16,704 nt of DNA, taken from the IMG/VR virus record IMGVR_UViG_2541047712_000007; one strand, 5' to 3'. How positions within the stretch are numbered: position 1 is the first letter of the stretch; each line of letters begins with the position of its first letter. The stretch is from a virus (taxonomy: Duplodnaviria; Heunggongvirae; Uroviricota; Caudoviricetes). The notes beneath the pieces are model-generated. The model was not told the DNA's origin. It worked only from the letters and a program-made list of their open reading frames with translations, and did no database searches. The position numbers and the translations under genes were made by a program. Shown here in pieces: positions 1 through 16,704 of this stretch.

Positions 1-1461
1 ATGAAAAAATTACTGCGTCTTTTTTTCCCGCTCTCGCTGCGGGTACGTTTTCTGTTAGCAACGGCAGCAGTAGTATTGGTGCTTTCGCTTGCCTACGGAA
101 TGGTTGCGCTGATCGGTTATAGCGTCAGTTTCGATAAAACCACGTTTCGGCTGTTACGTGGCGAGAGCAATCTGTTCTATACCCTTGCGAAGTGGGAAAA
201 CAATAAGTTGCATGTCGAGTTACCCGAAAATATCGACAAGCAAAGCCCCACTATGACGCTAATTTATGATGAGAACGGGCAGCTTTTATGGGCGCAACGT
301 GACGTGCCCTGGCTGATGAAGATGATCCAGCCTGACTGGCTGAAATCGAATGGTTTTCATGAAATTGAAGCGGATGTTAACGATACCAGCCTCTTGCTGA
401 GTGGAGATCATTCGATACAGCAACAGTTGCAGGAAGTGCGGGAAGATGATGACGACGCGGAGATGACCCACTCGGTGGCGGTAAACGTCTACCCGGCAAC
501 ATCGCGGATGCCAAAGTTGACCATTGTGGTGGTGGATACCATTCCGGTGGAGCTAAAAAGTTCCTATATGGTCTGGAGCTGGTTTATCTATGTGCTCTCA
601 GCCAATCTGCTGTTAGTGATCCCGCTGCTGTGGGTCGCCGCCTGGTGGAGTTTACGCCCCATCGAAGCCCTGGCAAAAGAAGTCCGCGAACTGGAAGAAC
701 ATAACCGCGAATTGCTCAATCCAGCCACAACGCGAGAACTGACCAGTCTGGTACGAAACCTGAACCGATTGTTAAAAAGTGAACGCGAACGTTACGACAA
801 ATATCGTACGACGCTCACCGACCTGACCCATAGTCTGAAAACGCCACTGGCGGTGCTGCAAAGTACGCTGCGTTCTCTGCGTAGTGAGAAGATGAGCGTC
901 AGTGATGCTGAACCGGTAATGCTGGAGCAAATCAGCCGCATTTCACAGCAAATTGGCTACTACCTGCATCGTGCCAGTATGCGCGGCGGGACATTGCTCA
1001 GCCGCGAGCTGCATCCGGTCGCCCCACTGCTGGACAATCTCACCTCGGCGCTGAACAAAGTGTATCAACGCAAAGGGGTCAATATCTCTCTCGATATTTC
1101 GCCAGAGATCAGCTTTGTCGGTGAGCAAAACGATTTTGTCGAGGTGATGGGCAACGTGCTGGATAATGCCTGTAAATATTGCCTCGAGTTTGTCGAAATT
1201 TCTGCAAGGCAAACCGACGAGCATCTCTATATTGTGGTCGAGGATGATGGCCCCGGTATTCCATTAAGCAAGCGAGAGGTCATTTTCGACCGTGGTCAAC
1301 GGGTTGATACTTTACGCCCTGGGCAAGGTGTAGGGCTGGCGGTAGCCCGCGAAATCACCGAGCAATATGAGGGTAAAATCGTCGCCGGAGAGAGCATGCT
1401 GGGCGGTGCGCGGATGGAGGTGATTTTTGGTCGCCAGCATTCTGCGCCGAAAGATGAATAA
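1..1461 (+). CDS. phoQ: Sensor histidine kinase PhoQ (complete, 486 aa)
   Basis: Full-length ORF. Two hydrophobic segments flank a periplasmic domain with an acidic patch ([10 protein letters not shown]). H-box [13 protein letters not shown] and ATP-binding boxes ([25 protein letters not shown]) are present. The sequence matches E. coli PhoQ as I remember it. Confidence 0.97.
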
Positions 1462-1896: not shown

Positions 1897-2350
1897 CCCC
1901 GACCTCCTCAAATTGAGGAGGTCGAAAGTATCAACCAGTTACCGCGCCGACTTCCTCAAATTGAGGTTCCCGAAAATATCAGCGGGTTAACGATCAAACT
2001 GGCGAGTAATTAAACTGCGAAAATTTCGCATGTGAGGGATGTAGTCGGCGCAATTTTGCGCTTTGCTTTAATCTCAGTAAGTTACCGCGCCAACTTCCAC
2101 AGTCTGTGGAAATTGGGAAGAATCAACGGTTTAGGCCTTAATCATCTGCGTAATCATAAGTAATCATAATGTTCATTCAGCCACGCAATTTTGCGTTATC
2201 GGGAATATCAGCAAGTTACCGCGCCGGATTCCGCCAATGGCTGTTTCCGAAAGAATCAACGGGTTAGGCTGGTTTCCCCGATGTTCGCCGCTGGCGAATT
2301 TCGAAAATATCAACCAGTTACCGCCGCAACCGCTCCGGCTTCTTCCAGTG
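1897..2350. repeat. Degenerate direct-repeat array: four units of conserved box, 24-28 bp variable hairpin-prone segment, second conserved box
   Basis: Left boxes aaagtatcaaccagttaccgcgcc (1925-1948), tcagtaagttaccgcgcc (2075-2092), tatcagcaagttaccgcgcc (2206-2225), aaaatatcaaccagttaccgccgc (2303-2326). Right boxes aaaatatcagcgggttaacg (1973-1992), aagaatcaacggtttaggcc (2118-2137), aaagaatcaacgggttaggc (2250-2269). A perfect 9-bp-stem hairpin gacctcctcAAATTgaggaggtc sits at 1901-1923. Spacers carry near-palindromes gcgaaaatttcgc / gcgcaattttgcgc. Confidence 0.65.
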
Positions 2351-2599
2351 GTACGTTATTTTTTCTTTCTCCCGATGCAGTTCAACGCGGCGATTGTAGG
2401 CCAGCATTTCAAGAACGCGGATCCGTATGTTGCGCATATCAACATCATTAAGCTGGATACCATCACGGCACATCACCTCAGCAACAACACGCGCATAATT
2501 TTCGGCTGTCACGCTGTCCGGCTGCGTGGTCTGTTCGTCAGCCTGCTGGCTGATTCCAGATACGCGGCGGATTAATCCCAGTAGTTCGGCTTCTGTCAT
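2318..2599 (-). CDS. Hypothetical protein (93 aa), last gene of the packaging operon
   Basis: ATG at 2599 with a GAGG Shine-Dalgarno about 9 nt upstream, 13 nt after the TerL stop. Helix-rich translation. Its last 13 codons lie inside repeat unit 4. No family recognised. Confidence 0.5.
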   Translation of the reverse strand: MTEAELLGLIRRVSGISQQADEQTTQPDSVTAENYARVVAEVMCRDGIQLNDVDMRNIRIRVLEMLAYNRRVELHREKEKITYHWKKPERLRR

Positions 2600-2612
2600 G
2601 CTGCTGACCTCA

Positions 2613-4274
2613 TTACACCCCGCTGAATTCTTCCAGTTTCTGGCGGTGGCTGTCGCTTATATCAAAAGCAAAATCCTCATGCTCTGCCTGGAATGTACCA
2701 AACGCCATCAGTGCCGCCACGCTCGGGTCTATCTTGTTCGGTGATTTTTTCTTGTTCGGCTTGATATTGGCGTTCGCGTCACTCTGCATCACGACGTTAC
2801 TCATCGACCAGGACAACACCGGATCGCCACGATGCACAATCACCCTGCGGTTAACAAAAACTTCGAACGATTTCGCCGCCGGACTGAATCTGAGGTAGGT
2901 TTGCGGGAACGGCTCCACCTCAAAACCTGCCCCCTGTAATTGCGTTCTGAGATGCGTGGCGTTCCACGTATCAAAGCCCACCAGCCTGATATGAAATTTC
3001 TCCGCGTCCTGCATGATGTCATCTCTGATCCGGTCGTAATCAATGCAGTCGCCAGGCGTTGTGCGTATCCAGCCCGCTTTAGCCCACTGACGATAGACAG
3101 CGCGGTTTTTATTGGCGGGGTTCTGTAGCTGGAACTCCGGCAGATAATGACGGGAAATCAGCATAATGGTTTTACCGACCGGAAAGGCATAGCATACGCT
3201 GGAAATATCGCTGGTTGATGATAAATCCAGCCCCGCGTAACACTCCTGGCCGTGTAAATCTTCCTCCGTGAACGTTCCGGCACACTCAGCCCATGCGCCG
3301 TTACCCATCCACGGGGTAGCCCCCTGGCACCAGATATTAAATCGCTTTGTCATCATCTCCACCCACTGCGACGGTATTCCCCGCGCTTTCTGGATGGTTG
3401 AGGCCAGTTTTTCACGATCGACGGAAACATCGATATTGGGATTCGCCTTTATCCACATCGCCGGATCGTCAACCTCGCTTTCATCATCCAGCTCGTAAAT
3501 CAGCACGAACATGGATTCGTTCACCTCTTCACCATCCAGTATCTGGCAGCAATAGTCGTAGTGTTGTTTACAGGCTGAAACAACGTTGCTCCCCGATGTG
3601 GTGATGGCAAATAACAGCCCCTCCGGACGCGCCCCCATTCCCAGTTCAAGCGCGGAATAAACCCCGTTGTCAGGGTGCAGGTGATATTCATCCACAATGG
3701 CAAGACTCGGGTTTGTACCTTCAATGGTTGCCGCTTTTGCTGCCAGCGGCTTTAACAGGCTGTTGCTTTTCGGGTGTATCACCTTATGCGCCTGAATATT
3801 CACTCTCTTGCGTAACGGTCGGGATAAAAGGCACATCTGACGCGCATCATCAAAAACGATCCGCGCCTGGTCGCGGCTCACCGCTGCGGTGTAAATATCC
3901 TGCTGCCCGTTCTCCATAATCAAAAACCAGTTAGCCAGAATCGCGGCTGTCGTGGATTTCGCATTTTTGCGCGGCACTTCGATAAAGGCGCTCGTGTATT
4001 TGCGCCTTCCGGTGGCCTTAACCTTAAAGCCGAGGATGCACGCAAAGGCAAACTGCTGCCACGGTTCCAGCTCAATGGGTCTTCCACGCATCGGCCCTTT
4101 TACGTGCGGGCACACCCTGGAAAAGGCAATAAACCGCTCAACAACCTCACGATCGAACATGTAAAGGGGGTTTTCAAGGTCCGAAAAGTATCGTTCAACG
4201 GTCTGTTTCAGCCGTTTACAGGCCGGAATCTTGCCCGTTTTTACGTCTTCTGCGTACTTATTCCAGGCGGTCAA
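2613..4274 (-). CDS. terL: Terminase large subunit (553 aa)
   Basis: N-terminus TAWNKYAEDVKTGKIPACKRLKQTVERY is typical of TerL. Size, and position immediately after TerS with a 17-nt overlap, fit. The first codon at 4272-4274 is TTG (GAGGA upstream), so the exact start is uncertain. Confidence 0.92.
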   Translation of the reverse strand: MTAWNKYAEDVKTGKIPACKRLKQTVERYFSDLENPLYMFDREVVERFIAFSRVCPHVKGPMRGRPIELEPWQQFAFACILGFKVKATGRRKYTSAFIEVPRKNAKSTTAAILANWFLIMENGQQDIYTAAVSRDQARIVFDDARQMCLLSRPLRKRVNIQAHKVIHPKSNSLLKPLAAKAATIEGTNPSLAIVDEYHLHPDNGVYSALELGMGARPEGLLFAITTSGSNVVSACKQHYDYCCQILDGEEVNESMFVLIYELDDESEVDDPAMWIKANPNIDVSVDREKLASTIQKARGIPSQWVEMMTKRFNIWCQGATPWMGNGAWAECAGTFTEEDLHGQECYAGLDLSSTSDISSVCYAFPVGKTIMLISRHYLPEFQLQNPANKNRAVYRQWAKAGWIRTTPGDCIDYDRIRDDIMQDAEKFHIRLVGFDTWNATHLRTQLQGAGFEVEPFPQTYLRFSPAAKSFEVFVNRRVIVHRGDPVLSWSMSNVVMQSDANANIKPNKKKSPNKIDPSVAALMAFGTFQAEHEDFAFDISDSHRQKLEEFSGV

Positions 4275-4614
4275 GCTCGTCCTCTTCTTCTGTTTCCGGT
4301 GGATTTTTACGGCGGCTTATCGGGTCAAAACCGAGCAAAGAGGCCATTTTTATCATCACTCTTTCCGCGTCGGATTTCGCGCTTAATGCGGGGTTTCTGC
4401 TCTCTCCGCCCTGACTGTTAACAATGCTGAATCCGCGCGCCGCAAGGTCTGCGACGGCTTTCCGGTATATCGAGTAATTGACGCAATACAGTTCCAGATT
4501 ACTCCAGTCGGCAGGGGTCAGGTCTCCCCGTTCCGCAAGCTGCCGCGATTTTTCCCGCCACTGCTTCACGGCGATATCATCCAGGTAGGCGGGGACTTTC
4601 GGTGGTCTTGCCAT
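4258..4614 (-). CDS. terS: Terminase small subunit, P27-like family (118 aa)
   Basis: N-terminal MARPPKVPAYLD motif, size, acidic C-terminus, and position directly upstream of and overlapping TerL. Confidence 0.85.
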   Translation of the reverse strand: MARPPKVPAYLDDIAVKQWREKSRQLAERGDLTPADWSNLELYCVNYSIYRKAVADLAARGFSIVNSQGGESRNPALSAKSDAERVMIKMASLLGFDPISRRKNPPETEEEDELDRLE

Positions 4615-4903
4615 GCTTATTTTTTCGCCAGATTATTTTTCAAAAAATTACCGTGCATAAAAATTTGGGGAGGCGTTCGGTGCCCGGCGGGGTCGGGTTT
4701 GTCCTGAAAACGCCCCCCACCCCGTCATACAGCCTCATCAGCGATTGCGGAAACATTCCATAACCTCGCAGTCACGGTCGGTTAATCGCTTCGCTGTGAT
4801 GCGTTCTGCGCGTCCTGACGCTTTATCTTTATGCCCTGTTTCTTGTGTCTTCCATGCGTCACGCTGCCTTATAAGTCCACGGATAAGGCGGTTTTGTTCC
4901 CGC
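4615..4903. other. HNH-TerS intergenic region; candidate cos/packaging initiation site
   Basis: A 289-bp non-coding gap between the HNH and TerS genes, the position where HNH-associated cos phages keep cos. It contains an AT-rich tract with tttttcaaaaaa (4621-4660) followed by a GC-rich block ggggaggcgttcggtgcccggcggggtcgggtttgtcctgaaaacgccccccacccc (4667-4724) with an imperfect inverted repeat. Confidence 0.3.
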
Positions 4904-5344
4904 TCATTCATCAGCGTCATACATCCAGTTATTGCGGTTAGCGGCCCGTTCTTCCTCTTCACGAAATCCACCTGCGGCACGCTTGCTTTTTGTTGCCGGA
5001 TCAAGCCATTTCGTTTTCTGGTTATGGCACGCCTGGCACAATGGCTGATGGTTCCATTCGGGCCAGAAGAGAACATCATCACCGCCATTAATCGGGATAA
5101 TGTGATCCACCACCACGGCGGGCGTATATATCCCCTTCTCAAGGCATCGCACGCATAACGGGTTTTTACTCAGATACATGGCGCGGTATTTGTCCCACTG
5201 TCTGGAGTACCCACGCGCGCGGCGGTGTCCTCGTCTGGCATCCTCTGCACGCCATGCCGCCCGCCTGTGCTCCTCACACTTGCCGGACTTCACGCGCCTG
5301 TTACAGCCTGGTTCTGTGCATCGTCTTAATGGTTGCCACGGCAT
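4904..5344 (-). CDS. HNH endonuclease (146 aa)
   Basis: Cys-rich zinc-binding motifs (CTEPGCNRRVKSGKCEEH, CVRC, CQACHNQ) and the HNH core VVDHIIPINGGDD...NHQPLCQACHN. Confidence 0.9.
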   Translation of the reverse strand: MPWQPLRRCTEPGCNRRVKSGKCEEHRRAAWRAEDARRGHRRARGYSRQWDKYRAMYLSKNPLCVRCLEKGIYTPAVVVDHIIPINGGDDVLFWPEWNHQPLCQACHNQKTKWLDPATKSKRAAGGFREEEERAANRNNWMYDADE

Positions 5345-5640
5345 CAGTACACCCCCACATCACGGTAAGCCGTCCAGAGTGCACCAATCGTCATGGGTAC
5401 GCGTGTTTTTGCGTTATCCGCGACAATCTGGCGATTTTCATACAGGTGAGCGATAAACATCATGCAGCCAATCTTTATGGCTGGCGTGAACTCCAGCCCG
5501 TCATCAAAGCGCCTGCCTATGTGTATCTGGCACGCCTCAAGCGATGCGGCGATGTATCCGCTGATTAACTGGTCTTCCTCGTCGCCATCGATGCGGCAAT
5601 GGAGTTTCACTTCTTCCAGGGTGATAAGTTCTTCTGTCAT
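5344..5640 (-). CDS. gp6-like head-tail connector protein (98 aa)
   Basis: MTEELITLEEVKLHCRIDGDEEDQLISGYIAAS matches the N-terminal pattern of phage gp6-type connector proteins. Start overlaps the upstream stop (ATGA). Confidence 0.7.
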   Translation of the reverse strand: MTEELITLEEVKLHCRIDGDEEDQLISGYIAASLEACQIHIGRRFDDGLEFTPAIKIGCMMFIAHLYENRQIVADNAKTRVPMTIGALWTAYRDVGVY

Positions 5641-5975
5641 TTTTCCGCGCCCTCACGACAAAGAATTTCAAGGCGTGTCCTGGCGGCATCCGGCAGCGGC
5701 TGCCCGATGATATTCAGTACACGCCCCGCCAGCGGCCCCGTATTGACCTTTATCCGGCTGGTGGCGTTGATGTCCTTCCTGTAGCGTATCCATATCCTTA
5801 CCGTTCCAGTCGCCAGTTCTGCACCCGATGAAATGGCCTCCTTGCTGCTGATCATGTTCACGCTTGCCCAGAGTGTGTGACCGTCCTCCCACGTTTCGAG
5901 TATTTCGCCGGTTATATCCCTGGTCTGTTTCAGGGTCTGAATCGTTACCCTGTCACGCAGTCGCCCTATGTTCAT
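5637..5975 (-). CDS. Head-tail adaptor / head-closure protein (Phage_H_T_join-like), about 112 aa from the internal ATG
   Basis: RLRDRVTIQ...IRYRKDI...LEILCRE pattern. The ATG at 5975 overlaps the portal stop (ATGA) and has a GAGGGAG upstream. The ORF extends in frame to an ATG at 6017 that has no Shine-Dalgarno. Confidence 0.7.
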   Translation of the reverse strand: MNIGRLRDRVTIQTLKQTRDITGEILETWEDGHTLWASVNMISSKEAISSGAELATGTVRIWIRYRKDINATSRIKVNTGPLAGRVLNIIGQPLPDAARTRLEILCREGAEK

Positions 5976-7183
5976 TCCGGTTTTTCTCCCTCGCTGATTT
6001 TTACTTCCTGTTTCCATGCCTGGCTGAACTCATCACCACCATCACGCGGGGACAGCCCTTCACGTTCGCGGGCTTCGTTCGGGCACATAACGCCGGATTT
6101 GATGCCGCGTTCATAGGTGGCAAAGCGTTCGCCAGGAGTGGCCCGTAACAGGTCCGCGCTGTCAAACTCCACCTGATACCGGATACCAGGTACAGGTGAG
6201 GCCACCAGCAGGGCGTTTTTTATCTGCTGCTCAAAGTTCGCCAGCCACGGGCGCATCGTCATGGTGAGAAATGCGCGGCTTGCCTCGCTGAAATTGCTGT
6301 AGGTGCTGTTGCTGTATTCCTGCAAAAAAATCGGCGAGACGTTGAACATTCGGGCGATGTCTTCAATGGTGAAGCGACGGGAGGCCAGCCATTCAGCATC
6401 CTGATTACTCATGCCCAGCTGCTGATAGCTCATACCCCCTTCAAGGATGGGCGTTTTTCCGGCGTTTCTGGCCCCTTTGTAGCGTTCCAGTGCGGCTAAT
6501 GCCTGTTTGCCCTTCACGCCGTCCAGCCATTCGCCTGACGTGATAACCCCTGCCGCCATCATGCCATCACGCATCACGCTCGCGCCGTGGCGTTGTTGGG
6601 CCAGCCCAAGCCCCAGCGATTCGCGGCAGATGGTTACAGGTGAGCGCCCCATAAAACCGTCATCCGTGGAGTAACGAAGGTGGAGAACCTCCCACGGTAA
6701 ATAGTTGCGGGTGTTTCCGGTGTAGGCGTCAGTGATGCAGTAGCGCCAGTTATGCTCACCTGTCTGCTCAACGTTCACCGACTGCGGCGGGTAAGGATGC
6801 AAAGCGACTGGAAAACCATCACGCCCCCACTGAATCACCGCATAAGCATTACCGTTTAACAGGCAGTGGCGGATCATCATTCGCTTAAACTGGTAGGGGG
6901 TTTGCCATGCGTTCGGGCGCTCGTTGAGGATGTGATCGACCGGATGAGAATCAAGCCACTCTCGGGCCTCCTTCCCCTTCTCATTGCGTACCAGGTACAG
7001 GTAACACGGCATGGTAGCCACCGCCTCAGAGATGACCGTGACGGCGTTCATGACGGCGGGCAGTGATTCCGCTGTCCCCGATGATACGTACTCACCCGCC
7101 CCCGTGTTCGATGTGCCAGCCAGCGCCATAAACTCATCAAGCGTCATGCTGCGCTGCTCTTTTTTTCTTCTGAAAGGCCACAT
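5972..7183 (-). CDS. Portal protein, HK97 family (403 aa)
   Basis: Size and the motif RRFTIEDIARMFNVSPIFL characteristic of HK97-type portals. ATG at 7183 with a G-rich Shine-Dalgarno. Confidence 0.93.
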   Translation of the reverse strand: MWPFRRKKEQRSMTLDEFMALAGTSNTGAGEYVSSGTAESLPAVMNAVTVISEAVATMPCYLYLVRNEKGKEAREWLDSHPVDHILNERPNAWQTPYQFKRMMIRHCLLNGNAYAVIQWGRDGFPVALHPYPPQSVNVEQTGEHNWRYCITDAYTGNTRNYLPWEVLHLRYSTDDGFMGRSPVTICRESLGLGLAQQRHGASVMRDGMMAAGVITSGEWLDGVKGKQALAALERYKGARNAGKTPILEGGMSYQQLGMSNQDAEWLASRRFTIEDIARMFNVSPIFLQEYSNSTYSNFSEASRAFLTMTMRPWLANFEQQIKNALLVASPVPGIRYQVEFDSADLLRATPGERFATYERGIKSGVMCPNEAREREGLSPRDGGDEFSQAWKQEVKISEGEKPE

Positions 7184-7184
7184 A

Positions 7185-7757
7185 TCACACCCCCGCTAAA
7201 TCCGCCCACCAGCGGCGATTATCCGCACGCGGCATTTTTTCGGGGTGCTGCTCGTACAGGGAGCGGCGGGCCAGCTCCACGCCGGAATCAGGGTAAGCCG
7301 GTACGGATGTAACGGTAATTTCGTATAGTTCCGCCACCAGCACGGTGCGCACGCATGGATCTGTTGTGGTATCCCATACATCCTTACGGGAACGAAAGCC
7401 AAAGCTCATGCCGGATATATCACCTCGTTTAACCAGTTCGATAACGTCGCGCCCTGTACTGGTATCCGGTGGGGTCAGTTCAAAGCGTAACCCTGTTTCG
7501 TCCTCTTCCAGTTTCAGCGTGCCGGAACGGGTGCGCCCCAGTAACATGCTGTGGTCATGCTCATACAGGCCGCGAACGTCATTACCCGCCGCAAGCCACT
7601 CAGTAAACGCCCCCCGCTGGAATTTTTCGTAAAACTCCCCCCATAGCAGTTCTGAAAGCTTATCCCAGCGAACAACGTAGCCCGTCAGCGTACCGGCTCC
7701 GCTGGTAGTGATTTCCGATGACCGGATTTCCATACTCTTCATAATTTTTTCACCCAT
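7185..7757 (-). CDS. Prohead maturation protease, HK97 family (about 180-190 aa)
   Basis: GYVVRWDK...LYEHD...LGRTRSGTLKLEEDETGL matches the HK97 prohead protease family. The start could be the ATG at 7757, 7742 or 7733. Confidence 0.88.
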   Translation of the reverse strand: MGEKIMKSMEIRSSEITTSGAGTLTGYVVRWDKLSELLWGEFYEKFQRGAFTEWLAAGNDVRGLYEHDHSMLLGRTRSGTLKLEEDETGLRFELTPPDTSTGRDVIELVKRGDISGMSFGFRSRKDVWDTTTDPCVRTVLVAELYEITVTSVPAYPDSGVELARRSLYEQHPEKMPRADNRRWWADLAGV

Positions 7758-7786
7758 AAAACACTAAAGGGGCTTTTAAGCCCCTT
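7757..7786 (-). terminator. Intrinsic terminator or attenuator between the capsid and protease genes
   Basis: Minus-strand hairpin aaggggcttaaaagcccctt (8-bp stem, 7767-7774 pairing with 7779-7786) followed by a U-rich run (uaguguuuua). Confidence 0.5.
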
Positions 7787-7796
7787 CTGTATGCTG

Positions 7797-8954
7797 TTAA
7801 TCGTCGTCCTGTGGCAGTTCCAGAATCTTGATCGCGTTCGAATCCACCACGCCACCGCCTAAATATTTCTGCGTGAAAATTTTGATGAAGCCCGGCTCTG
7901 TGAGGTTGTCCGGTCTGGTGCGAACACCTGTTTCGTGATCAACAATGTAGTAACCGCGTTTGAAGTCACCCAGGGCAATAACGTTATCAGGCATAAACTC
8001 CAGATATTCGACCGGAAGGCCCAGCAACGTATCAGGATCACCCGCCTGTAAACGGTCGCGCCAGATGTAATCACCGTTCGCGTTCTTCACCTTCTGAAGT
8101 TTTGCCGCCGTCGTGGAGTTAACCACCCAGACCGCGTTTTTGCGGTATTTTTTACGTAATGCAAATTTCAGGTCGATCAGCGGGTCCGCAGATGTCCACG
8201 CCAGAGATTCGGAAGGTTTAATTACCTGCAACGTACCAAAATCACGCTCTTTGTCGTTCTTCTCTGCACGGGGTACGGATAAAAAACCTTTTGCTTTTTT
8301 GTCACCGTCGCCCACAACCAGATCGCTTTCTTCGGTTTCCGTGAAGGTGTCGCCAATCTCACCCGTCAGCCATGAAAGGATGTCCACATCGGAAAAATCC
8401 ACGATTTCCTGTGTGGTGCGCGGGTACGCATAGACCGGATACAGCTTAATGCTCACCTCGTTAATCTGCGGGGTGCTGGTCTGTTCGCGTGTCTTACCCT
8501 CTTCACCGTGGTTAACGGTCGCACCGCCAGCGGAAACAAGCTGCTTAAACTCGTTGCTGCTGATTTTCTTCACGGTACAGATGCGGCGCATGGTGGATTC
8601 ATCCGTCAGCATTCGCATGATTTCGGTGTTCAGTTCGGGGATAACGGTATAACCACCATCAGCGGGAACGCCTGTACTTAATGCGCGGGTTTCACCTGTC
8701 AGAATGTAGTTGCGTAGTTCTGCGGGGTCAGTGGTCTGGCTGCTTTTACCTGGCTTGCTGCGCTCTTCGTCTGCAATGGCTTCAAGGCGGGAAATGTCTT
8801 TATCGAGGGATTCAGCTTTAGCGCGTAATTCGTCAAATTTTGCGCCCTCAGCATCGTTAAGACTGCGGTTTTCTTTTTCCGCGTTCTCCAGCATGTCGCG
8901 CATCTGATTTTTAATGGCGGTTTTCTGCTGGCGTAATTCGATTATTCTCGGCAT
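7797..8954 (-). CDS. Major capsid protein, HK97 fold, with N-terminal coiled-coil delta/scaffold-like domain (385 aa from the ATG at 8954)
   Basis: HK97-family capsid-like C-terminal two thirds. The N-terminal roughly 90 aa are charged and heptad-like, and no separate scaffold gene exists. ATG at 8954 with AGGA upstream; the ORF track extends to a GTG at 9002. Confidence 0.92.
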   Translation of the reverse strand: MPRIIELRQQKTAIKNQMRDMLENAEKENRSLNDAEGAKFDELRAKAESLDKDISRLEAIADEERSKPGKSSQTTDPAELRNYILTGETRALSTGVPADGGYTVIPELNTEIMRMLTDESTMRRICTVKKISSNEFKQLVSAGGATVNHGEEGKTREQTSTPQINEVSIKLYPVYAYPRTTQEIVDFSDVDILSWLTGEIGDTFTETEESDLVVGDGDKKAKGFLSVPRAEKNDKERDFGTLQVIKPSESLAWTSADPLIDLKFALRKKYRKNAVWVVNSTTAAKLQKVKNANGDYIWRDRLQAGDPDTLLGLPVEYLEFMPDNVIALGDFKRGYYIVDHETGVRTRPDNLTEPGFIKIFTQKYLGGGVVDSNAIKILELPQDDD

Positions 8955-9210
8955 AAAAAAAGTCCTGGGGTTAAGTAAGGAACTCCAGGACGCGGCAAAC
9001 ACTCAACCGTTTTTCATAAGGAAATCAGTAATCGCACCGATCGTTTTCCCGCCTGGTAATGAATATTGGCGAGCACATTAACAGGCGGGAAAATGGCCCC
9101 AGCGTCCTGGCACCACGGGCGAGAATAATCATGATTCAGGTCGGGTAAAATATGCCGTTCCGGTCAGCGAGCAACGTGGAACAACCACGAACAAATAATT
9201 TACAAAACAT

Positions 9211-9234
9211 GACAAAAAGCCGGATTGCTCCGGC
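9211..9234 (-). terminator. Rho-independent terminator ending the early/replication operon
   Basis: Minus-strand hairpin gccgga-GCAA-tccggc (GNRA loop; 9219-9234) followed by uuuuugucauguuuug, immediately after the stop at 9242. Confidence 0.7.
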
Positions 9235-9241
9235 TGTGTGA

Positions 9242-9514
9242 TTATCTGTCCTGGTAATTTCGCCATATTTCATCGCTTACACCATCTATACCCATTTCAG
9301 CATAAGTGCGATCTACTGCCTTTCTCAGGTCTCCGAAGTTATCCGGCGGCTCCGGTGGCTTCTGTGCCTTCCTGGAACATTCCAGCCGTCGCATCGTAAC
9401 CTGATGCCGTTCCTTGTCTGTCTCCACCAGCAGCATGACTTCACCCCATCGCGCCGACGCCCTCCGGTAAAAGCCTTTCGCCTCGAGTTCTTCCGCTATG
9501 CGGTCATGTACCAT
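9242..9514 (-). CDS. Hypothetical protein (about 91 aa)
   Basis: ORF downstream of ssb. The ATG at 9514 has a GAGGGG Shine-Dalgarno 6 nt upstream; the track ORF extends to 9634 but would overlap ssb. No family recognised. Confidence 0.5.
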   Translation of the reverse strand: MVHDRIAEELEAKGFYRRASARWGEVMLLVETDKERHQVTMRRLECSRKAQKPPEPPDNFGDLRKAVDRTYAEMGIDGVSDEIWRNYQDR

Positions 9515-9524
9515 CGCCACCCCC

Positions 9525-9935
9525 TCAGAACGGAATACCGTCACCGTAAGGGTCATCGCCTCCCGCTGGTGGCTGATTACCCTGTGTGCCTGTGGTTTTG
9601 CGTCTGTTCCCGCCAGGACGTGCCGCACGGGCACTGATTACGCTGTCTGCAATAACCTGATAACCCTGCCGCGTTTCCCCGTTCTGTCCCGTCCACTGGC
9701 TGACCTGCATCGTGCCGGATACGCTGGCAACGTCGCCTTTTTGATGTTTAGCCAGGAAGTCGGCCTGCTTACCAAATGCGATGACCGATAGCCATAACGT
9801 CGCCTGCCCATCCTGCGCCTGACTACATGGCAACGATACCGCCATACGCGCCAGCGTCATCGGTGTGCCCTTACTGGTCTGTTTTACCTGCGGGTCGTCC
9901 ACCAGCCGCCCGTAAGCCGCTATCTGTGCTGTCAT
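9525..9935 (-). CDS. ssb: Single-stranded DNA-binding protein (136 aa)
   Basis: OB-fold-like N-terminal region (AAYGRLVDDPQV...LWLSVIAFGKQADFL), Gly/Gln/Pro-rich linker, and the C-terminal acidic tail ...DDPYGDGIPF resembling the SSB DDDIPF tip. ATG overlaps the upstream stop; GGAGAGGTGG Shine-Dalgarno. Confidence 0.85.
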   Translation of the reverse strand: MTAQIAAYGRLVDDPQVKQTSKGTPMTLARMAVSLPCSQAQDGQATLWLSVIAFGKQADFLAKHQKGDVASVSGTMQVSQWTGQNGETRQGYQVIADSVISARAARPGGNRRKTTGTQGNQPPAGGDDPYGDGIPF

Positions 9936-10210
9936 GATTCCACCTCTCCGGTTTTAACGTTGATGGTTGTTACCTGTTCCGCTTCGGCAATCTCCCGTTC
10001 TGTCAGCGTGGCAAAGTTTGCCGCCGCCGTGGTCATGAATGCGCTTATCAGTTCGGGATGTGCTTTCGCGTATCCTTCCCCCGCGTGGCGGTCTATCGTT
10101 CTGATTGCCACCTTTAAAGCGTGCTCTGTCATGTCTAACGCGCGATATTTCGGTTCTGTTCTGTCTCTGCGTTTTTTGAGTGATTTATTAAATTTCCCTG
10201 AAGTGTGCAT
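9932..10210 (-). CDS. Hypothetical protein (92 aa), first gene after the origin
   Basis: ATG at 10210 with a GAGGGGG upstream; translationally coupled to ssb. No family recognised. Confidence 0.5.
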   Translation of the reverse strand: MHTSGKFNKSLKKRRDRTEPKYRALDMTEHALKVAIRTIDRHAGEGYAKAHPELISAFMTTAAANFATLTEREIAEAEQVTTINVKTGEVES

Positions 10211-10254
10211 ATTTATTTTTACCCCCTCGTTTAAAAAGTTTTGAGTTGTGCCTC

Positions 10255-10490
10255 CCCTTGTCTACCTTATCTACCTTACTGGCTCTCATGCCAGTAATGG
10301 CGCGGCTTTCAGCGGGGTAGAGTGCTTTTATCCACTATCTACCCCGTGTCTACCTCCCTGTCTGATTCAGGTAAAATCAGGTAGAGAGGGTAGATAGTGG
10401 GTAGACAGTAAAAAAAGGCTATCTACCTAACTTAATGCACTGAATTAAATGTATTTTTCTTTACTCAGGTAGACAGGGTAGACAGCAATT
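10255..10490. repeat. Iteron-type replication origin
   Basis: At least 11 copies of the 7-mer GGTAGA(C/G/T) in both orientations (for example tgtctaccttatctacc 10259-10275, ggtagagagggtagatagtgggtagacag 10380-10408, caggtagacagggtagacag 10466-10485), interspersed with A/T tracts, directly 3' of the primase gene. Confidence 0.75.
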
Positions 10491-10498
10491 ACAAAAAA

Positions 10499-12253
10499 TT
10501 ATAAAAACGCGTCGCACTCGTCTGTTGTTATTGCGTTAGTCTGCGTTACTCCCTTAACTTTCCGCGTAATATATTCATGTCCGTAAACTTTCGCGGCTGG
10601 CTTCATAGCCTTGCCAAAGTCATTTACGTTTAGCGGTTTGCTCCTGCCTGCGTACGCCATAAACGCCAGATAGACGCGGTAAAGACTGTTTCTGGTCGTG
10701 TACTTCACTGAATCGCCACCGCCGCCCATCATCAGGCCGCGTGCTTCCTCCAGAAAATTCAGGAACTGGCAAAACTCAATAACCGGATCCGTCTGTTGCT
10801 TTATTGCCAGAGCTTCATCACCGTCACGCTGTTCCAGTAGTAAAGCCCTCGCCTTCTCAGGGTCGGTAAAGTTCGCCAGCAATCGGCGGATAATGACAGG
10901 GATTTCAGCCGCGATCTTTTCCGGTAGCTCCCTGTCTTTTTCGGCCTCACTGACGATATTGTCGAAACGGAAAATCACGCGACGACGTGCCACACCTCCG
11001 GCCCGTTCGGTGAATATCATCGGGTTATTGTTGGTCGCCAGCACCACCGCCCTGATTACAGCCGTGAAACGCTTTTCGTATTTCGGGTTAATTTCCACGG
11101 GGTCACCGCCCGTGATTTTCTTGATGCCCGTTCCTTCGCCTGTATATTTCGGCTGGTCAGCCAGGACGATAAGACGACTCCCGACAACCTGCGCACGTCC
11201 ACCAGCATCATCAAGCGATGTCATTTCAGCGCTTACCGTGTTCTGTTTCCCTGCCAGAAGGCTGGCTATGTGTGTGAATGTACTTTTACCGCTCCCGCCG
11301 TCTCCGGTGGCCTCAATAAACATCTGCCAGTCGTACCGGTTCGCCATAATCATGTACAGCGCGGCACATATACGCATCATCTTGCGCGGGTCTTTTCCGG
11401 CTGCGTGCTCAAGCCATTTATGAAAGTTTGGCGCGTTATCGCGGATGTTCTCCCCTGGTGCTGGTGGCGTGTACTCAATGCCGTTGTGCGTGGTGATCCA
11501 GTTCTCCGGCGTGTGCGGGGAAAATTCCCCCGTTTTCAGGTCAAGCGCACCATTGGCGAACGGCAGCAAATCGCCGGACGGCTCGCCCATTGGTTCGGCA
11601 ATAACTTTTAACGCTTCCACGGCGTTATTGATTACGCGCTTGCTGAAAGTGGCCCTGTGCTCTGAATAGATCGCCACCATTTCGCGGCTAAGTTCCATTG
11701 TGCTGACCGGACACCATACCCCGCCGCGCCATACGTGAACGATTTCACTTTCAGGATGTACGCAAACGCCATCAAAGCGATCGGCAAGCAGCTGCGCGCG
11801 CTCACTGTCCGCCATCTGCGAAAGTTGCGCCTTTTGCTTTACCGGAAGCTCAATGACCAGACCATCAGAAAGATTCTGGCGCTCACGGGCCAGATATTCG
11901 CGCCAGTTCTCCACCTTCTGACCGTGCATACCCTCAGGATAAAAATTTGCATCCTGTACGCCTGCCGCCGCCAGCTTCTGGCCAATCGCCTTTATCATTA
12001 CTGGCGCAAGATATCCGGCCCTGAATATGCGCACGGATTTTCTGCCTTCCGGCACAATTTGCAGCTTATCCAGTTCTGATAACTGCTGCTCCCCAAGCCA
12101 CACAGGAGGCTCATTATCTCCGGCCATACGCGCATCATGTTCCTGCCATTGTTTCGCGTGTGCCCAGGCATCACTACCCGCAAAAATAATGACTTCTGTT
12201 CCTTTGTGTTTTATGCCGCGTGACTGCTGTTTTACGTTCGGTGCCAGTTTCAT
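10499..12253 (-). CDS. P4-family primase / SF3-type helicase replication protein (584 aa)
   Basis: Walker A motif TGDGGSGKSTF in the C-terminal half, size, and the position upstream of the iteron origin. ATG overlaps the upstream stop (ATGA). Confidence 0.9.
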   Translation of the reverse strand: MKLAPNVKQQSRGIKHKGTEVIIFAGSDAWAHAKQWQEHDARMAGDNEPPVWLGEQQLSELDKLQIVPEGRKSVRIFRAGYLAPVMIKAIGQKLAAAGVQDANFYPEGMHGQKVENWREYLARERQNLSDGLVIELPVKQKAQLSQMADSERAQLLADRFDGVCVHPESEIVHVWRGGVWCPVSTMELSREMVAIYSEHRATFSKRVINNAVEALKVIAEPMGEPSGDLLPFANGALDLKTGEFSPHTPENWITTHNGIEYTPPAPGENIRDNAPNFHKWLEHAAGKDPRKMMRICAALYMIMANRYDWQMFIEATGDGGSGKSTFTHIASLLAGKQNTVSAEMTSLDDAGGRAQVVGSRLIVLADQPKYTGEGTGIKKITGGDPVEINPKYEKRFTAVIRAVVLATNNNPMIFTERAGGVARRRVIFRFDNIVSEAEKDRELPEKIAAEIPVIIRRLLANFTDPEKARALLLEQRDGDEALAIKQQTDPVIEFCQFLNFLEEARGLMMGGGGDSVKYTTRNSLYRVYLAFMAYAGRSKPLNVNDFGKAMKPAAKVYGHEYITRKVKGVTQTNAITTDECDAFL

Positions 12254-12549
12254 TTTTTACCCCTGAATCCTTTAATCATGGTTTTCATCTTCTGAATATT
12301 GGCGCGTGCTTTCTCCCTGCTGGTGGGCACGTTACGCGGTACGGCCTGCACAAGAGAAAAATCACGGTCGAACTGATAAACAGGCATCACGCAATCATAT
12401 TCGTAGCCTTCACGACGGTAGGTTACGCGCCGTTCCTCCACGCCCTTAATCATTACCGTGCCGCCGTACTTATCGCGGTAAATATCACCGCGCATGAATT
12501 TAGTGCGAGTTTTGCCACTGGCAGTTAAGCCAGAATATTTAAGTTTCAT
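12250..12549 (-). CDS. Hypothetical protein (99 aa), basic
   Basis: ATG at 12549 with GGAGAA upstream; translationally coupled to the primase. No family recognised. Confidence 0.6.
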   Translation of the reverse strand: MKLKYSGLTASGKTRTKFMRGDIYRDKYGGTVMIKGVEERRVTYRREGYEYDCVMPVYQFDRDFSLVQAVPRNVPTSREKARANIQKMKTMIKGFRGKK

Positions 12550-12554
12550 TATTT

Positions 12555-12788
12555 TTATTCTCCGGTGTGGGGCGCTTTATACTGGTCGTGTAATGTCTCT
12601 ATTTCCTGCAACTCATTTATTACAGGCTCAAGAAGCGTTATTAATGCCGTGACAATCCTTGATTTCTGTTTATCACGTTCATTATCTCCAAGCGTTTCAA
12701 GACATATGCGCAATATTTCCAACATATTTTCACTGTGAGAAAGTGCAAGAAATGCGCGGTCTATTGTTTCGTGGTAAATATCACGCAT
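12555..12788 (-). CDS. Hypothetical protein (77 aa)
   Basis: ATG at 12788 with GGGGA Shine-Dalgarno; tightly packed in the operon. Confidence 0.55.
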   Translation of the reverse strand: MRDIYHETIDRAFLALSHSENMLEILRICLETLGDNERDKQKSRIVTALITLLEPVINELQEIETLHDQYKAPHTGE

Positions 12789-12789
12789 A

Positions 12790-13011
12790 TTAATCCCCGT
12801 CCGTCGTTTTTCTTAAAATAACCTCTGTCACGAAATCAGCATAATCGGCGGCGATATTCAGTACATCAAGCCCCGTTGATTTATATTCTCTCGTGGAAAG
12901 TAAGAAAAAAGCCGCTCTAATAAGCTCTGGCATTGACGAAAGCGCATCAGCCGCATCATCAGGAACGCCGGAAAATTCCTGTTTCAGGGAATTAAAACGA
13001 TCATCACGCAT
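12790..13011 (-). CDS. Hypothetical protein (73 aa), acidic
   Basis: ATG at 13011 with AGGGGGG Shine-Dalgarno; overlaps the upstream stop. Confidence 0.55.
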   Translation of the reverse strand: MRDDRFNSLKQEFSGVPDDAADALSSMPELIRAAFFLLSTREYKSTGLDVLNIAADYADFVTEVILRKTTDGD

Positions 13012-13369
13012 GTTTACCCCCCTGAATGACCTGATAACCGCAACTGGTCAGCAACTCGATAAATTCCGGCAGTGTGCCGAAACAGCAATCATCACGCAGC
13101 CGTTCGCAGGATACCTCGACGCCGTTTTCGTAGTGACTCACCATACATCCGGTAAAATGCAGATCATCATCGTGATGGCTCGTTGACGGCTTAATCAGTC
13201 GCGCACGTTCCGCCAGTTCCAGCAATGCTTCAACGCTTCCGGCAATTGCACCATCCGGCAGGTGATAATTACGCACTATGCGCCCGTTCTCCACATTGAC
13301 CAGCAACTGCCCGGTAAATTTCTCGTCAAACTGAATGCTGTTAAGGTCAGAAATTGACAGGTTATGCAT
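13004..13369 (-). CDS. Hypothetical protein (about 121 aa)
   Basis: ATG at 13369 (MHNLSISD...) with GGAGG upstream, overlapping the upstream stop; the track ORF extends to 13387. Confidence 0.55.
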   Translation of the reverse strand: MHNLSISDLNSIQFDEKFTGQLLVNVENGRIVRNYHLPDGAIAGSVEALLELAERARLIKPSTSHHDDDLHFTGCMVSHYENGVEVSCERLRDDCCFGTLPEFIELLTSCGYQVIQGGKHA

Positions 13370-13586
13370 GGTGCACCTCCTGCACATCAGCCATGATAAT
13401 TTTTCCGGCCTTATCCAGTGCCTGATCGGCTTTTAGCTGCACAAATGCTAAATAATGGAAGATGCATTCTGATTCTCTGGCTGCGTGTTTATGCGCCCTG
13501 TCAGCAATAACAGAAATATCAATAAGCGCGTGCATCAGCGTAGTGAGCGCGGCGGCTGCTGCGTCCGGTGTGGTTTTATTGCACAT
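13362..13586 (-). CDS. Hypothetical protein (74 aa)
   Basis: ATG at 13586 with AGGGGGT Shine-Dalgarno. Confidence 0.5.
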   Translation of the reverse strand: MCNKTTPDAAAAALTTLMHALIDISVIADRAHKHAARESECIFHYLAFVQLKADQALDKAGKIIMADVQEVHHA

Positions 13587-13782
13587 GGCCTACCCCCTGG
13601 CGAATACGGGCAGCGAATACCATCACGCAGCCATCAGGAGATTGCTGACGCGCTTCCTGTTCGCTGGTGGCCTCGATGGTAATCACGCGCGGTTGTGCCG
13701 TGCTCAGGGCGATAAAACGCCAGATGTATTTATTCAGGTCGTGCGAATCCCGCCCTTGCGGGTGTGTGGTATGATTTCTCAT
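13576..13782 (-). CDS. Hypothetical protein (68 aa), first gene of the leftward operon
   Basis: ATG at 13782 with GAGG 5 nt upstream. It is the C-terminal, plausible part of a 430-aa track ORF whose remainder is antisense to plus-strand genes and the operator region. Confidence 0.45.
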   Translation of the reverse strand: MRNHTTHPQGRDSHDLNKYIWRFIALSTAQPRVITIEATSEQEARQQSPDGCVMVFAARIRQGVGHVQ

Positions 13783-13878
13783 AGCTACCTCGATACTTTC
13801 GCTATCGTTGGTGGTTAGAAGCCCGGTTAGTGTTAGCGCACTGCCGGGTTTCGTCGTTTCTGCACCTTGCGCCAACAA

Positions 13879-13931
13879 GGTGTTGAACACCAATTTAAAC
13901 CCAGGTGTTAAACACGTCAAGTGTTGAACAC
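13879..13931. promoter_or_regulatory. Triple palindromic operator in a divergent promoter region
   Basis: Three copies of the palindrome GTGTT-N-AACAC: gtgttgaacac (13880-13890), gtgttaaacac (13905-13915), gtgttgaacac (13921-13931), lying between the leftward operon start (13782) and the plus-strand RHH gene (13982). Confidence 0.7.
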
Positions 13932-13981
13932 TTATTTTTTTTCCTGCATACTGCATTTGTTTTTTATGAGGGGTACACCAC

Positions 13982-14161
13982 ATGGCGACAAAAGCAGTAA
14001 ACGCAAAATCACAAACCGTTGCGGCAAGGGTTCCGCATGAAGTTATGAACAATGTTGAGGCGGTAAAAATGCCTGGCGAAAGTACGGGGCAATTTGTTAC
14101 TGCGGCATTAAAACGAGAAGTTGAATATCGCCAGCGGCGCAAGGCCAAAGAACCAGAGTAA
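13982..14161 (+). CDS. Ribbon-helix-helix (Arc/CopG-like) DNA-binding protein, 59 aa; candidate island repressor
   Basis: ATG at 13982 with GAGGGG Shine-Dalgarno. The translation has an RHH-like beta-strand (QTVAARVPHEV) followed by two helices. Below the ORF-track length cutoff; I translated it directly. Confidence 0.6.
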   Translation: MATKAVNAKSQTVAARVPHEVMNNVEAVKMPGESTGQFVTAALKREVEYRQRRKAKEPE

Positions 14162-15109: not shown

Positions 15110-15113
15110 AATT

Positions 15114-15474: not shown

Positions 15475-16704
15475 TTATATTTCTCTGGCTATTGGCAATG
15501 TGGTTACGTTTTCATGTGTTCCCGCCAGTATCCCTAACCGCTCCGTCCACATATCCAGCGCGTCACGTTTCGCATCCAGATAACGGGAATGGTTATAGAC
15601 TCGTTGCATCCCTGGCATCTGATGACCTGTAAGCTGCTCCACGACGTGAGGATCCACGCCTAAATCGTTCAGCATCGTTGTAAAGGTGCGCCGGATGTCA
15701 TGCAGTGACCAGTGAGGGTGTTTTAGCCTCCTGTGCGCTAATCTGCCGTACTGCGACACGCTTGTTTCCTGTTTCACTTCCCCCAGCAATAAGCCCGTGT
15801 GCCTGTTCTGCTCCACCAGCTGCGTGACGAACGGCAGTATTGCTTCCGGTATGGGCCGGAATATTGCCACCTTCGTTTTGCTGTGTTCTTTCGGCACGGT
15901 CCAGAGCATTTCGGTAAAATCCCACTCGCTGATCTCCGATAACCTCAGTTCTACCGTCCGGCATCCGAAAACAATCAGGAGGCGGATTAGTGCGACGTAG
16001 TAAGGGGAAAATATTTTTTTGTCCAGTGCCTGCAATAATTCGCCAAGTTCTTTGGTGCTTAAGACGCGCTCGCTTATATCCGGTTTTTTCCCAACGTCCG
16101 CCACACTCATATCATCAAGAACGTTGCTGATTGCATAGCGCCGCCTCCGGCAGAACTTAAGCGCCTGTTTGCACGTCTGTAGCAAGAATCCGGCAGTAAC
16201 AGGCGTTCGCTTTGCCACCTGGTCAAAACAGGCCAGCCAGTGCCGTAGCTCGCATTTATCCAGCGGCATAGCACCAATGTGCTGTATTACGTGATTATTA
16301 AGGCGCTTTTTCAGGGCGGCATAATCCACGCGGTTTTCCTTTGCGTACGACTCAAGCCAGTAGGTGAGCGCATCGCCAACCGTTACCGGCTTTAACGCTT
16401 CCTGTACGGTGTAATTCATTTCATGACGTGGATTTTTCCCCTCTGCCAGCCATGCGCGACACTGGGCGGCTTTTTCCCTGGCTGATTTCAGGCTCAGATC
16501 AGGATAATTTCCCAGCTTAATGCGTTCCGGTGGTGCCCCCCTTCCCGTTCCGGCCCTGTAAGTGAAATACCAGGTTAAAAGGCCACTGGTTGAATGCCTG
16601 ACGCTCAGGTTTCCACCGTCATTAAGAAAGGCTGTTTTTTGGGCGGGTGTGCCGTTGATTTTCCTCAGCTGTGTATCGCTCAGTTTGTTAAGTGCTCTGC
16701 TCAT
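15475..16704 (-). CDS. int: Tyrosine integrase, P4-like family (409 aa)
   Basis: C-terminal catalytic signature LHDIRRTF...GHQMPGMQRVYNHSRY (His-x-x-Arg box plus terminal Tyr) and a long N-terminal arm/core-binding region. Start codon is the last three bases of the window. Confidence 0.93.
   Translation of the reverse strand: MSRALNKLSDTQLRKINGTPAQKTAFLNDGGNLSVRHSTSGLLTWYFTYRAGTGRGAPPERIKLGNYPDLSLKSAREKAAQCRAWLAEGKNPRHEMNYTVQEALKPVTVGDALTYWLESYAKENRVDYAALKKRLNNHVIQHIGAMPLDKCELRHWLACFDQVAKRTPVTAGFLLQTCKQALKFCRRRRYAISNVLDDMSVADVGKKPDISERVLSTKELGELLQALDKKIFSPYYVALIRLLIVFGCRTVELRLSEISEWDFTEMLWTVPKEHSKTKVAIFRPIPEAILPFVTQLVEQNRHTGLLLGEVKQETSVSQYGRLAHRRLKHPHWSLHDIRRTFTTMLNDLGVDPHVVEQLTGHQMPGMQRVYNHSRYLDAKRDALDMWTERLGILAGTHENVTTLPIAREI

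Follow-up and report, generated by a model that had tools for sequence, protein, structure and literature searches.

We analysed IMG/VR record IMGVR_UViG_2541047712_000007, a stretch of 16,704 nucleotides (nt) called the window here, and found that its minus strand carries the packaging operon of a Proteobacterial capsid-forming phage-inducible chromosomal island (cf-PICI). This identity follows from the Pfam and PHROG gene calls, the chromosomal site between phoQ and roxA, 98.2% DNA identity of the packaging module to the corresponding locus of E. coli O157:H7 strain 86-24 and a match of the capsid protein to PDB chain 9gyi_B, and no contrary evidence was found. Taken as a whole, the region is best explained as an allele of the EcCIEDL933 packaging operon with putative expression features, a reading to which we assign a probability of about 0.85. 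Its capsid-first gene order is a fixed, published signature of the Proteobacterial cf-PICI clade, so that the finding, although correct, is a rediscovery. Both the element and its order of genes have been published and dissected by experiment, and the finding itself adds little; raw sequence alone sufficed to recognise a satellite that builds its own capsid.

Identity of the packaging operon

Open reading frames (ORFs) were taken from a six-frame listing and scanned against Pfam and PHROGs, and their starts were compared with the RefSeq annotation. The packaging genes and the gap between them are listed in the order of transcription.

7797..8954, minus strand: major capsid protein (HK97 fold), 385 amino acids (aa), first packaging gene; PF05065, E 2.6e-61; phrog_10; WP_001137345.1
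7185..7757, minus strand: prohead serine protease (S78); PF04586, E 7e-48; phrog_80
5972..7183, minus strand: portal protein; PF04860, E 9.2e-91; phrog_12
5637..5975, minus strand: head closure protein Hc1 (Phage_HCP); PF05521, E 9.8e-24; phrog_25
5344..5640, minus strand: gp6-like head-tail adaptor Ad1; PF05135, E 8.4e-12; phrog_40, E 7.9e-36
4904..5344, minus strand: HNH endonuclease, terminase accessory factor of HK97-type cos packaging; PF01844, E 1.8e-08; phrog_144, E 8.1e-45
4738..4920, minus strand: small hypothetical ORF overlapping the 3' end of HNH; RefSeq, no Pfam match
4615..4737, minus strand: non-coding gap of 123 nt with G-rich and C-rich runs, probable cos
4258..4614, minus strand: small terminase TerS, P27 family; PF05119, E 1.3e-23; phrog_83
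2613..4274, minus strand: large terminase TerL with ATPase and nuclease domains, overlapping the TerS stop; PF03354 and PF20441; phrog_9, E 1.5e-180

In the cf-PICI papers Hc1 is named "head-tail adaptor" and Ad1 "head-tail connector". A preliminary description of this DNA, made from the letters alone, had called capsid, protease, portal, adaptor, gp6-like connector, HNH, TerS and TerL, and both Pfam and PHROGs upheld all of these calls. The profile hidden Markov model searches that might have reassigned the capsid or the portal left both in place (PF05065, E 2.6e-61; PF04860, E 9.2e-91). Two starts had to be moved in agreement with RefSeq. The capsid start went from GTG 9002 to ATG 8954, which gives 385 aa, the length of the PDB 9GYI chain, and the Hc1 start went from 6017 to 5975. 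The protease may begin at ATG 7742 instead of 7757, judging from the junction sequence.

The window holds the content of an HK97-type module (HK97-fold capsid, S78 protease, portal, HNH and P27-type TerS). The protease and portal genes lie 1 nt apart, portal/Hc1 and Hc1/Ad1 share ATGA overlaps, Ad1 and HNH overlap by 1 nt, and TerS overlaps TerL. From the ATGA and 1-nt junctions we infer that the genes downstream of the capsid are probably translationally coupled.

A cos site had been proposed between HNH and TerS. The 123-nt non-coding gap (4615-4737) is indeed there, and the cos within it is a putative one. The cf-PICI vB_KppS-Ant (L085), deposited as a phage, has a linear record that ends in GGGGTGGGGGAGGTTTTCAGGAC, homologous to window positions 4701-4723 on the minus strand; its end motif GGGGTGGGGG..TTTTCAGGAC has a homologue in the gap 4615..4737, and this virion-derived record restarts 22 nt before TerS. 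These record ends hint at the position of cos cleavage without fixing the exact termini.

The element extends from 2318 to 16704 (~14.4 kb), is 100% identical in DNA to several E. coli chromosomes, and lies between phoQ and roxA. Its other landmark genes are as follows.

1-1461, plus strand: phoQ, at the start of the window; all else of note is on the minus strand
15475..16704, minus strand: tyrosine integrase (PF00589/PF13356, PHROG, RefSeq), at the left end of the element, adjoining roxA in the genome
14921..15109, minus strand: AlpA regulator; PF05930, E 3e-18
10499..12253, minus strand: D5-type primase/replicase; PF08706, PF19263, PF03288; phrog_864

In the direction of transcription the integrase is followed by AlpA, small ORFs (one of them DUF4222), the D5-type primase, SSB, a PerC-family regulator and the packaging genes. 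The PICI backbone that defines cf-PICIs (tyrosine integrase, AlpA regulator and primase/replicase) is present. A "Type A" cfPICI is defined by 11 core components, namely this backbone plus capsid, protease, portal, adaptor, connector, HNH, TerS and TerL (PMC10085698), and all 11 were found in the element. No tail or lysis (holin) families were seen among the ORFs scanned with Pfam and PHROGs or in the RefSeq annotation of the element, and its size falls within the range of cf-PICIs, which is about 10-17 kb. The preliminary description had been right to consider capsid-forming satellites.

We compared the DNA with the same site in E. coli O157:H7 strain 86-24, standing in for EDL933. The packaging module was 98.2% identical over 6.9 kb, the capsid, Ad1 and TerS protein accessions were common to both, and the hairpin that follows the capsid gene was identical. 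The element at this site in strain 86-24 is CP-933C / O-island 51 (OI-51), long labelled a degraded cryptic prophage (PMC3378721). CP-933C / OI-51 / Sp7 is now EcCIEDL933, the prototype cf-PICI (Alqurainy et al. 2022/2023; He et al. 2025). Residues 1-385 of the window capsid matched PDB 9gyi_B (E 6.9e-257). The PDB table names this chain only "Major head protein"; we take 9GYI to be the EcCIEDL933 capsid of He et al. Next after the near-identical 9GYI chain in the PDB sequence search came 6TB9 and 6TBA (E about 3e-46), the capsid entries of the Rhodobacter capsulatus gene transfer agent, and no HK97 capsid chain came under the 1e-05 cutoff.

EcCIEDL933 encodes and assembles a small capsid of its own (T=4, HK97 fold), packages its DNA itself and takes only tails from the helper (Alqurainy et al.; He et al. 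2025). Helper-induced excision, self-made small capsids and transfer with borrowed tails have been demonstrated experimentally in EcCIEDL933, and by sequence likeness the window element would be expected to behave in the same way. The EcCIEDL933 capsids were made in a strain overexpressing alpA, and mutation of every gene of its packaging module abolished transfer (bioRxiv 10.1101/2022.09.08.507074).

The window element resembles EcCIEDL933 in chromosomal site, gene order, capsid, Ad1 and TerS accessions (via strain 86-24), post-capsid hairpin and full-length 9GYI capsid match. It differs in the replication/accessory half, with a D5-type primase in place of the DUF927 protein of strain 86-24, other small ORFs and a BRO-N pseudogene; the packaging operon showed no functional difference. 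The classical Gram-negative PICIs EcCICFT073 and EcCIED1a share the int-alpA-rep backbone, and EcCICFT073 also shares the integration site. In contrast to the window element, they have no capsid, portal or TerL, redirect the helper terminase (Rpp) and use helper capsids.

Gene order in satellites and phages

The minus-strand order of the window is capsid-protease-portal-Hc1-Ad1-HNH-(probable cos gap)-TerS-TerL. In the annotated records of HK97, ST64B and VW-6S the order is TerS-TerL-portal-protease-capsid-Ad1-Hc1, and the HK97 HNH gene lies at the right end of the genome, adjoining cos. The window does not follow this canonical synteny. Two sub-blocks are reversed on the same strand, portal-protease-capsid becoming capsid-protease-portal and Ad1-Hc1 becoming Hc1-Ad1, and HNH-cos-TerS-TerL stays in canonical order. 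We count at least three block transpositions, all on the same strand, between the two orders. The statement of the preliminary description that the head genes are reordered relative to HK97-type modules yet stay on one strand was borne out by these records, as was its phrase "rearrangement, not inversion"; the canonical order it quoted, with connector (Ad1) before adaptor (Hc1) and HNH last, agrees with the annotations.

The implied novelty of the order did not hold. Alqurainy et al. gave exactly this order for Proteobacterial cf-PICIs in the paper that describes the family, where EcCIEDL933 was noticed for its "unusual genetic organisation" (bioRxiv 10.1101/2022.09.08.507074). The same paper reported two other orders in Firmicutes cf-PICIs (portal-protease-capsid first, or hnh-terS-terL first) and argued for three independent origins. 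Firmicutes cf-PICIs share the minimal gene content and the theft of tails only from the helper, but differ in gene order and phylogenetic origin. Moura de Sousa et al. called the cfPICI core organisation "very conserved" (PMC10085698).

We surveyed 160 related loci, 80 from genomes and 80 from IMG/VR, and read the gene order wherever the contig was long enough. The order of the window was found in all such genome loci (capsid identity 63-98%), which came from the Enterobacterales and the Gilliamella/Frischella group, including Shigella, Citrobacter, Proteus, Providencia, Xenorhabdus, Photorhabdus, Erwinia, Serratia and Gilliamella, and likewise in the IMG/VR loci. It was also found in two cf-PICIs deposited as phages, vB_KppS-Ant and Pasteurella Pmp8 (capsid identity 58%). 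The synteny comparison that the preliminary description had proposed therefore gave one order for the satellites and the canonical one for the phages.

In the phage collection the satellites had capsid identities of at least 58% and the nearest tailed phages 37% or less, with a gap between the two. Records above 58% were cf-PICIs of up to 16.5 kb deposited as phages, an unannotated 3.8-kb fragment (S.Kent 1-2-1) or a composite. ST64B and VW-6S are among the closest tailed-phage relatives of the capsid (34-37% identity). No tailed phage with a capsid-protease-portal order was seen, the next-best phages that we inspected being canonical. HK97, ST64B and VW-6S share with the window a P27-type TerS, TerL, portal, S78 protease, HK97-fold capsid, Ad1, Hc1 and an HNH gene beside cos. 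They differ in that the window element, in its circular form, has its integrase, regulation and replication genes between TerL and capsid, and no tail or lysis genes.

The origin of the module was addressed by searching 50,697 phage records by tblastn with the capsid, portal and TerL proteins. The best tailed-phage matches differed between the three proteins (capsid, VW-6S/YeP1/ST64B; portal, Ralstonia YO103_6/Klebsiella; TerL, Brucella BiPBO1), all at 31-37% identity. Identities of this level are too deep for ranking, and tblastn does not discriminate between an en-bloc and a piecemeal origin of the module. The evolutionary interest lies in three same-strand transpositions fixed in one clade, with other orders in the Firmicutes satellites.

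Two loci of the survey carried local duplications on the same strand. L112 (10557-14564) has a tandem protease-portal duplication within an otherwise normal module, and L018 (1489-2978) has an extra capsid and a truncated protease upstream of a complete module. Unless they are assembly artefacts, such duplications could be the kind of intermediate able to reorder genes without inversion.

Flanks of the capsid gene and explanations for the order

The non-coding features on either side of the capsid gene are listed here.

7753..7787 (stem 7766-7787), minus strand: post-capsid hairpin GAAGGGGCU-UAAA-AGCCCCUUU with AGUGUUUUAU as its interrupted, U-rich tail; may act as a leaky intrinsic terminator or stabilise the 3' end
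8962..8991, minus strand: leader stem-loop GUCCUGGAGUU-8 nt-AACCCCAGGAC, with U7 and then the capsid AUG after it; the only Shine-Dalgarno-like AGGA lies within the 3' arm
9044..9093, minus strand: 18-nt inverted repeat (arms 94% complementary, 14-nt spacer) within the non-coding DNA that precedes the capsid gene
9218..9235, minus strand: terminator-like hairpin and T5, directly after the PerC-family gene (9242-9514), dividing the upstream genes from the packaging operon

The post-capsid hairpin lies between the capsid stop (7797) and the protease start, in the sole intergenic gap upstream of the putative cos gap. Its 9-bp stem has 5 GC pairs, a 4-nt loop and a folding energy of -14.8 kcal/mol, the stem and loop expected of an intrinsic terminator. 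The U-tract consists of UUU inside the stem base followed by AGUGUUUUAU, and relatives carry 2 to 6 U. The preliminary description had placed a hairpin with a U-tract at 7757-7786. The hairpin is real, with its stem at 7766-7787 and a U-rich tail to about 7753, and the U-tract proved short.

Conservation was judged by hairpin detection in each sequence and not by alignment covariation. A GC-rich hairpin a few nt after the capsid stop was found in 79 of 86 distinct capsid-protease junctions from the 160 loci. The loops vary (UUCG, UGCG, GAAA and pentaloops). Most stems share GGGGC/GCCCC; a minority show compensatory versions (GGGGU/ACCCC, GGGAU/AUCCC, GAGGC/GCCUC), and Proteus has an unrelated 14-bp stem.

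The canonical-order phages HK97, ST64B and VW-6S also carry a hairpin directly after the capsid gene, as does the cf-PICI Pmp8. In HK97 it is GGGGGCGGG-GAAA-CCCGCCCUUUU, annotated as "putative terminator" (NC_002167, feature 5192-5213). This hairpin after HK97 gene 5 and that of the window are alike in lying a few nt past the capsid stop and in having a GC-rich stem, a tetraloop and a short U run. Both being putative terminators, they differ in what follows, Ad1 and the tail genes in HK97 but protease and portal in the window. Since canonical-order phages have a hairpin at the same place, that of the window is not a consequence of reordering. Judged from these comparisons, it is an ordinary companion of HK97-type capsid genes, and reordering changes only which genes follow it.

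On the other side of the capsid gene, 287 nt of non-coding DNA precede the start. A sigma-70 promoter scan of the minus strand over 8955-9241 gave no candidate. The words "promoter" and "terminator" are absent from both cf-PICI preprints, and none of the available cf-PICI texts takes up transcription of the packaging operon. The inverted repeat at 9044..9093 folds at -30 kcal/mol (z -3.2; none of 200 shuffles as good), and its 3' arm, the only arm covered by the compared stretch, is unchanged in O157:H7 strain 86-24. It may be an operator or an RNA structure.

The 66-nt leader segment, which includes a second small hairpin, folds at -17.9 kcal/mol, and the leader stem-loop is kept in E. coli variants. 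We examined the 60 nt upstream of each capsid start in the related loci L002-L168. In many genera a GGUUUCACG...CGGAAACC stem ends 5 nt before the capsid AUG; one Xenorhabdus group has a CUGCAUG...CAUGCAG stem at the capsid start, and in another a CAUGGUGUU...AACACCAUG stem pairs the start codon itself. The capsid ribosome-binding site or start is thus predicted to be buried in at least four sequence-unrelated stem versions across cf-PICI lineages. By partition function over 119 distinct leaders, the mean unpaired probability from -14 to +3 was 0.37, compared with 0.58 when the upstream sequence was shuffled (median z -1.9, a score that comes from related sequences and is not to be read as a probability). 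The portal and TerL starts, taken as internal controls, showed no such effect (z about +0.1). Of 116 leaders, 52 had TTAAC at -45..-12, where about 8 would be expected. The modelled leader stem could be an RNA that hides the start site, a leader terminator, or a DNA operator around an activator-dependent promoter.

Published transcript data bear on the uninduced state. In strand-specific RNA sequencing of EDL933 under 11 conditions, Z1847-Z1855, from capsid through TerL, gave 0-4 reads per kilobase per million (RPKM), with the last small ORF, Z1855, reaching 9 (PMC4048457, Table S4). Z1846, just upstream of the capsid gene, gave RPKM 69-154 in 5 of the 11 conditions and 8-38 in the rest (PMC4048457). 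In EDL933, therefore, the packaging operon is off without induction, and upstream transcription does not run into it. A ciprofloxacin study mentions CP-933C in passing only (PMC11125564). Expression of the heads depends on the island's own cascade and not on helper late-gene control, and because of this a built-in stoichiometry device is plausible.

In the mechanism that we propose, the packaging operon would be one transcription unit that starts in the 287-nt non-coding region and stays silent without induction. The hairpin would act as a leaky intrinsic terminator, a 3'-end stabiliser or both, and would raise capsid mRNA over that of protease, portal and enzymes. A T=4 shell takes about 235 capsid subunits by our own arithmetic, compared with 12 of portal. 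The hairpin would be the ordinary one of HK97-type capsid genes, carried along with the capsid gene and not linked to its reordering. That a leaky terminator or a protected 3' end gives differential expression is a reasonable proposal, to which we give even odds.

The preliminary description had proposed high capsid expression with attenuated read-through into protease and portal, an idea that stays no more than plausible. Several observations weigh against an attenuating hairpin with high capsid output. The U-tract is short and interrupted (UUUAGUGUUUUAU), and relatives often have 3-4 U and usually 3-5. When 32 junctions were aligned with MAFFT and folded with RNAalifold, the consensus stem had only 4 bp, of which one pair varied on both sides; formal covariation is weak because the stem sequence is mostly invariant and the variable loops shift the register. 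Seven of the 86 junction variants have no hairpin, and L008, L013 and L048, which are among their loci, keep the full downstream gene set. Terminator-like matches in the window numbered 24, against 17 +/- 3.9 in shuffled sequences, which is no enrichment. The transcript data cover the uninduced state only, and RPKM values of 0-4 give no capsid:protease ratio. The capsid ribosome-binding site is predicted to be base-paired, so that first position alone is no evidence of high capsid output.

The most serious alternative is that the capsid-first order is a frozen historical accident without expression logic and that the hairpin is an ancestral post-capsid terminator kept by descent. The hairpin is equally present in canonical-order phages, and the three hairpin-less loci have lost none of the downstream genes. 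Firmicutes cf-PICIs arose independently and use two other orders, which means that no single order is needed for a satellite capsid, and the overlapping and abutting genes would themselves hinder later rearrangement and preserve any order. On the other hand, the order is invariant at 58 to 100% capsid identity from Pasteurella to Escherichia, which selection would give as well. Gene rank tracks the expected copy number, from capsid through protease, then portal with the two joining proteins, to the enzymes, and the need for three separate same-strand transpositions would be odd for neutral drift. These counterarguments are not decisive. We place this explanation somewhat short of even odds.

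A second alternative concerns the hairpin itself. Transcription would not terminate there; the hairpin would guard a processed capsid mRNA against exonucleases at its 3' end, and the capsid segment would outlive the rest of the polycistronic transcript. The stable GC stem, the stable tetraloops (UUCG, GAAA and similar) and the weak U-tract of most relatives agree with such a role, and an excess of capsid mRNA is equally expected. However, the Pasteurella Pmp8 and Proteus versions carry 5-6 consecutive U, like true intrinsic terminators, and the HK97 counterpart is annotated as a putative terminator. Protection without termination is unlikely.

The proposed mechanism has a stronger form, in which capsid-first order, leaky hairpin and the stem-loop that buries the ribosome-binding site would together make a self-contained expression programme. 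The gated leader would open on induction only, and polarity with translational coupling would set capsid above protease, protease above portal and connector, and these above terminase. The programme would have evolved because the heads are expressed via the element's own AlpA cascade without helper late-gene antitermination. If this were true, reordering the genes or opening the leader would alter capsid yield or size. We consider so complete a programme quite improbable. The hairpin before protease and portal and the buried capsid start are handles on the head-protein ratios of a satellite without helper late regulators.

An older reading, implied by the label "cryptic prophage CP-933C", takes the region for what is left of a decayed HK97-like prophage whose genes were scrambled. 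It accords with the lack of tail and lysis genes, but its probability is close to nil, as all eight packaging genes are intact and tightly coupled, their order is kept across the 160 loci, and the published genetics and cryo-EM of EcCIEDL933 refute it, a near-identical module being required for transfer by mutagenesis and its capsid structure being solved.

Other features of the window and further relatives

The Rfam and tRNA scans of the window gave no match. A 430-aa minus-strand ORF at 13576-14868 was rejected as a gene; RefSeq has an Icd-like gene, a plus-strand YlcI/YnfO gene and the BRO-N pseudogene there. The GC skew turns positive within 13576-14868. The strongest terminator-like hairpin of the window, with a 12-bp stem and a T run, lies at 14592-14619 on the plus strand, with no obvious gene to terminate. 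In length and location the DUF4222 ORF (99 aa, 12250-12549) agrees with RgdR, a type III secretion regulator described for CP-933C/OI-51 (PMC3378721), and it is likened to RgdR on these two features only. The PerC-family gene at 9242-9514 corresponds by position and family to the PerC-like (PchE) gene (PMC3378721).

Four IMG/VR loci (L113, L117, L119 and L126) carried a complete cf-PICI that interrupts terL of an HK97-type prophage with canonical gene order. Satellite and prophage genes lie on one strand, and the loci show the two gene orders next to each other. The phage HNH, TerS and the N-terminal part of TerL lie upstream of the satellite integrase; the C-terminal part of that phage TerL, followed by the phage portal, protease, capsid and Ad1, lies downstream of the satellite TerL. 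The terL halves are at 864-1871 and 16506-17213 in L113, and at 1476-2096 and 17065-18102 in L126. In L113 the phage TerL is broken near residue 311, at the conserved motif F/L-T-K, and in L126 near residue 198, at the conserved motif DEYHEH.

Both junctions carry short shared cores, with GTGTATTGC repeats immediately inside the two ends of the satellite. Joining the terL fragments at the GTGTATTGC repeats restored no open frame. The repeats are more likely arm-type sites inside the element, and the crossover was probably at the short shared core of the break points (a 12-mer in L126, a 7-mer in L113). The arrangement suggests that the attachment site of these satellites is a prophage terminase gene. 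Satellite integration within prophages is in general a known phenomenon, and a keyword literature search returned no report of cf-PICIs inserted in prophage terL.

The 106.5-kb record of Klebsiella phage P12620-1 (PQ569648.1) has cf-PICI-like genes at one end, at about 90.9-106.5 kb. They include TerL (90984-92642), capsid (102271-103419) and portal (104060-105271), with portal and TerL 80-82% identical. This record appears to join a 90-kb genome to a satellite in virion permutation, as a co-assembly artefact or as a real composite.

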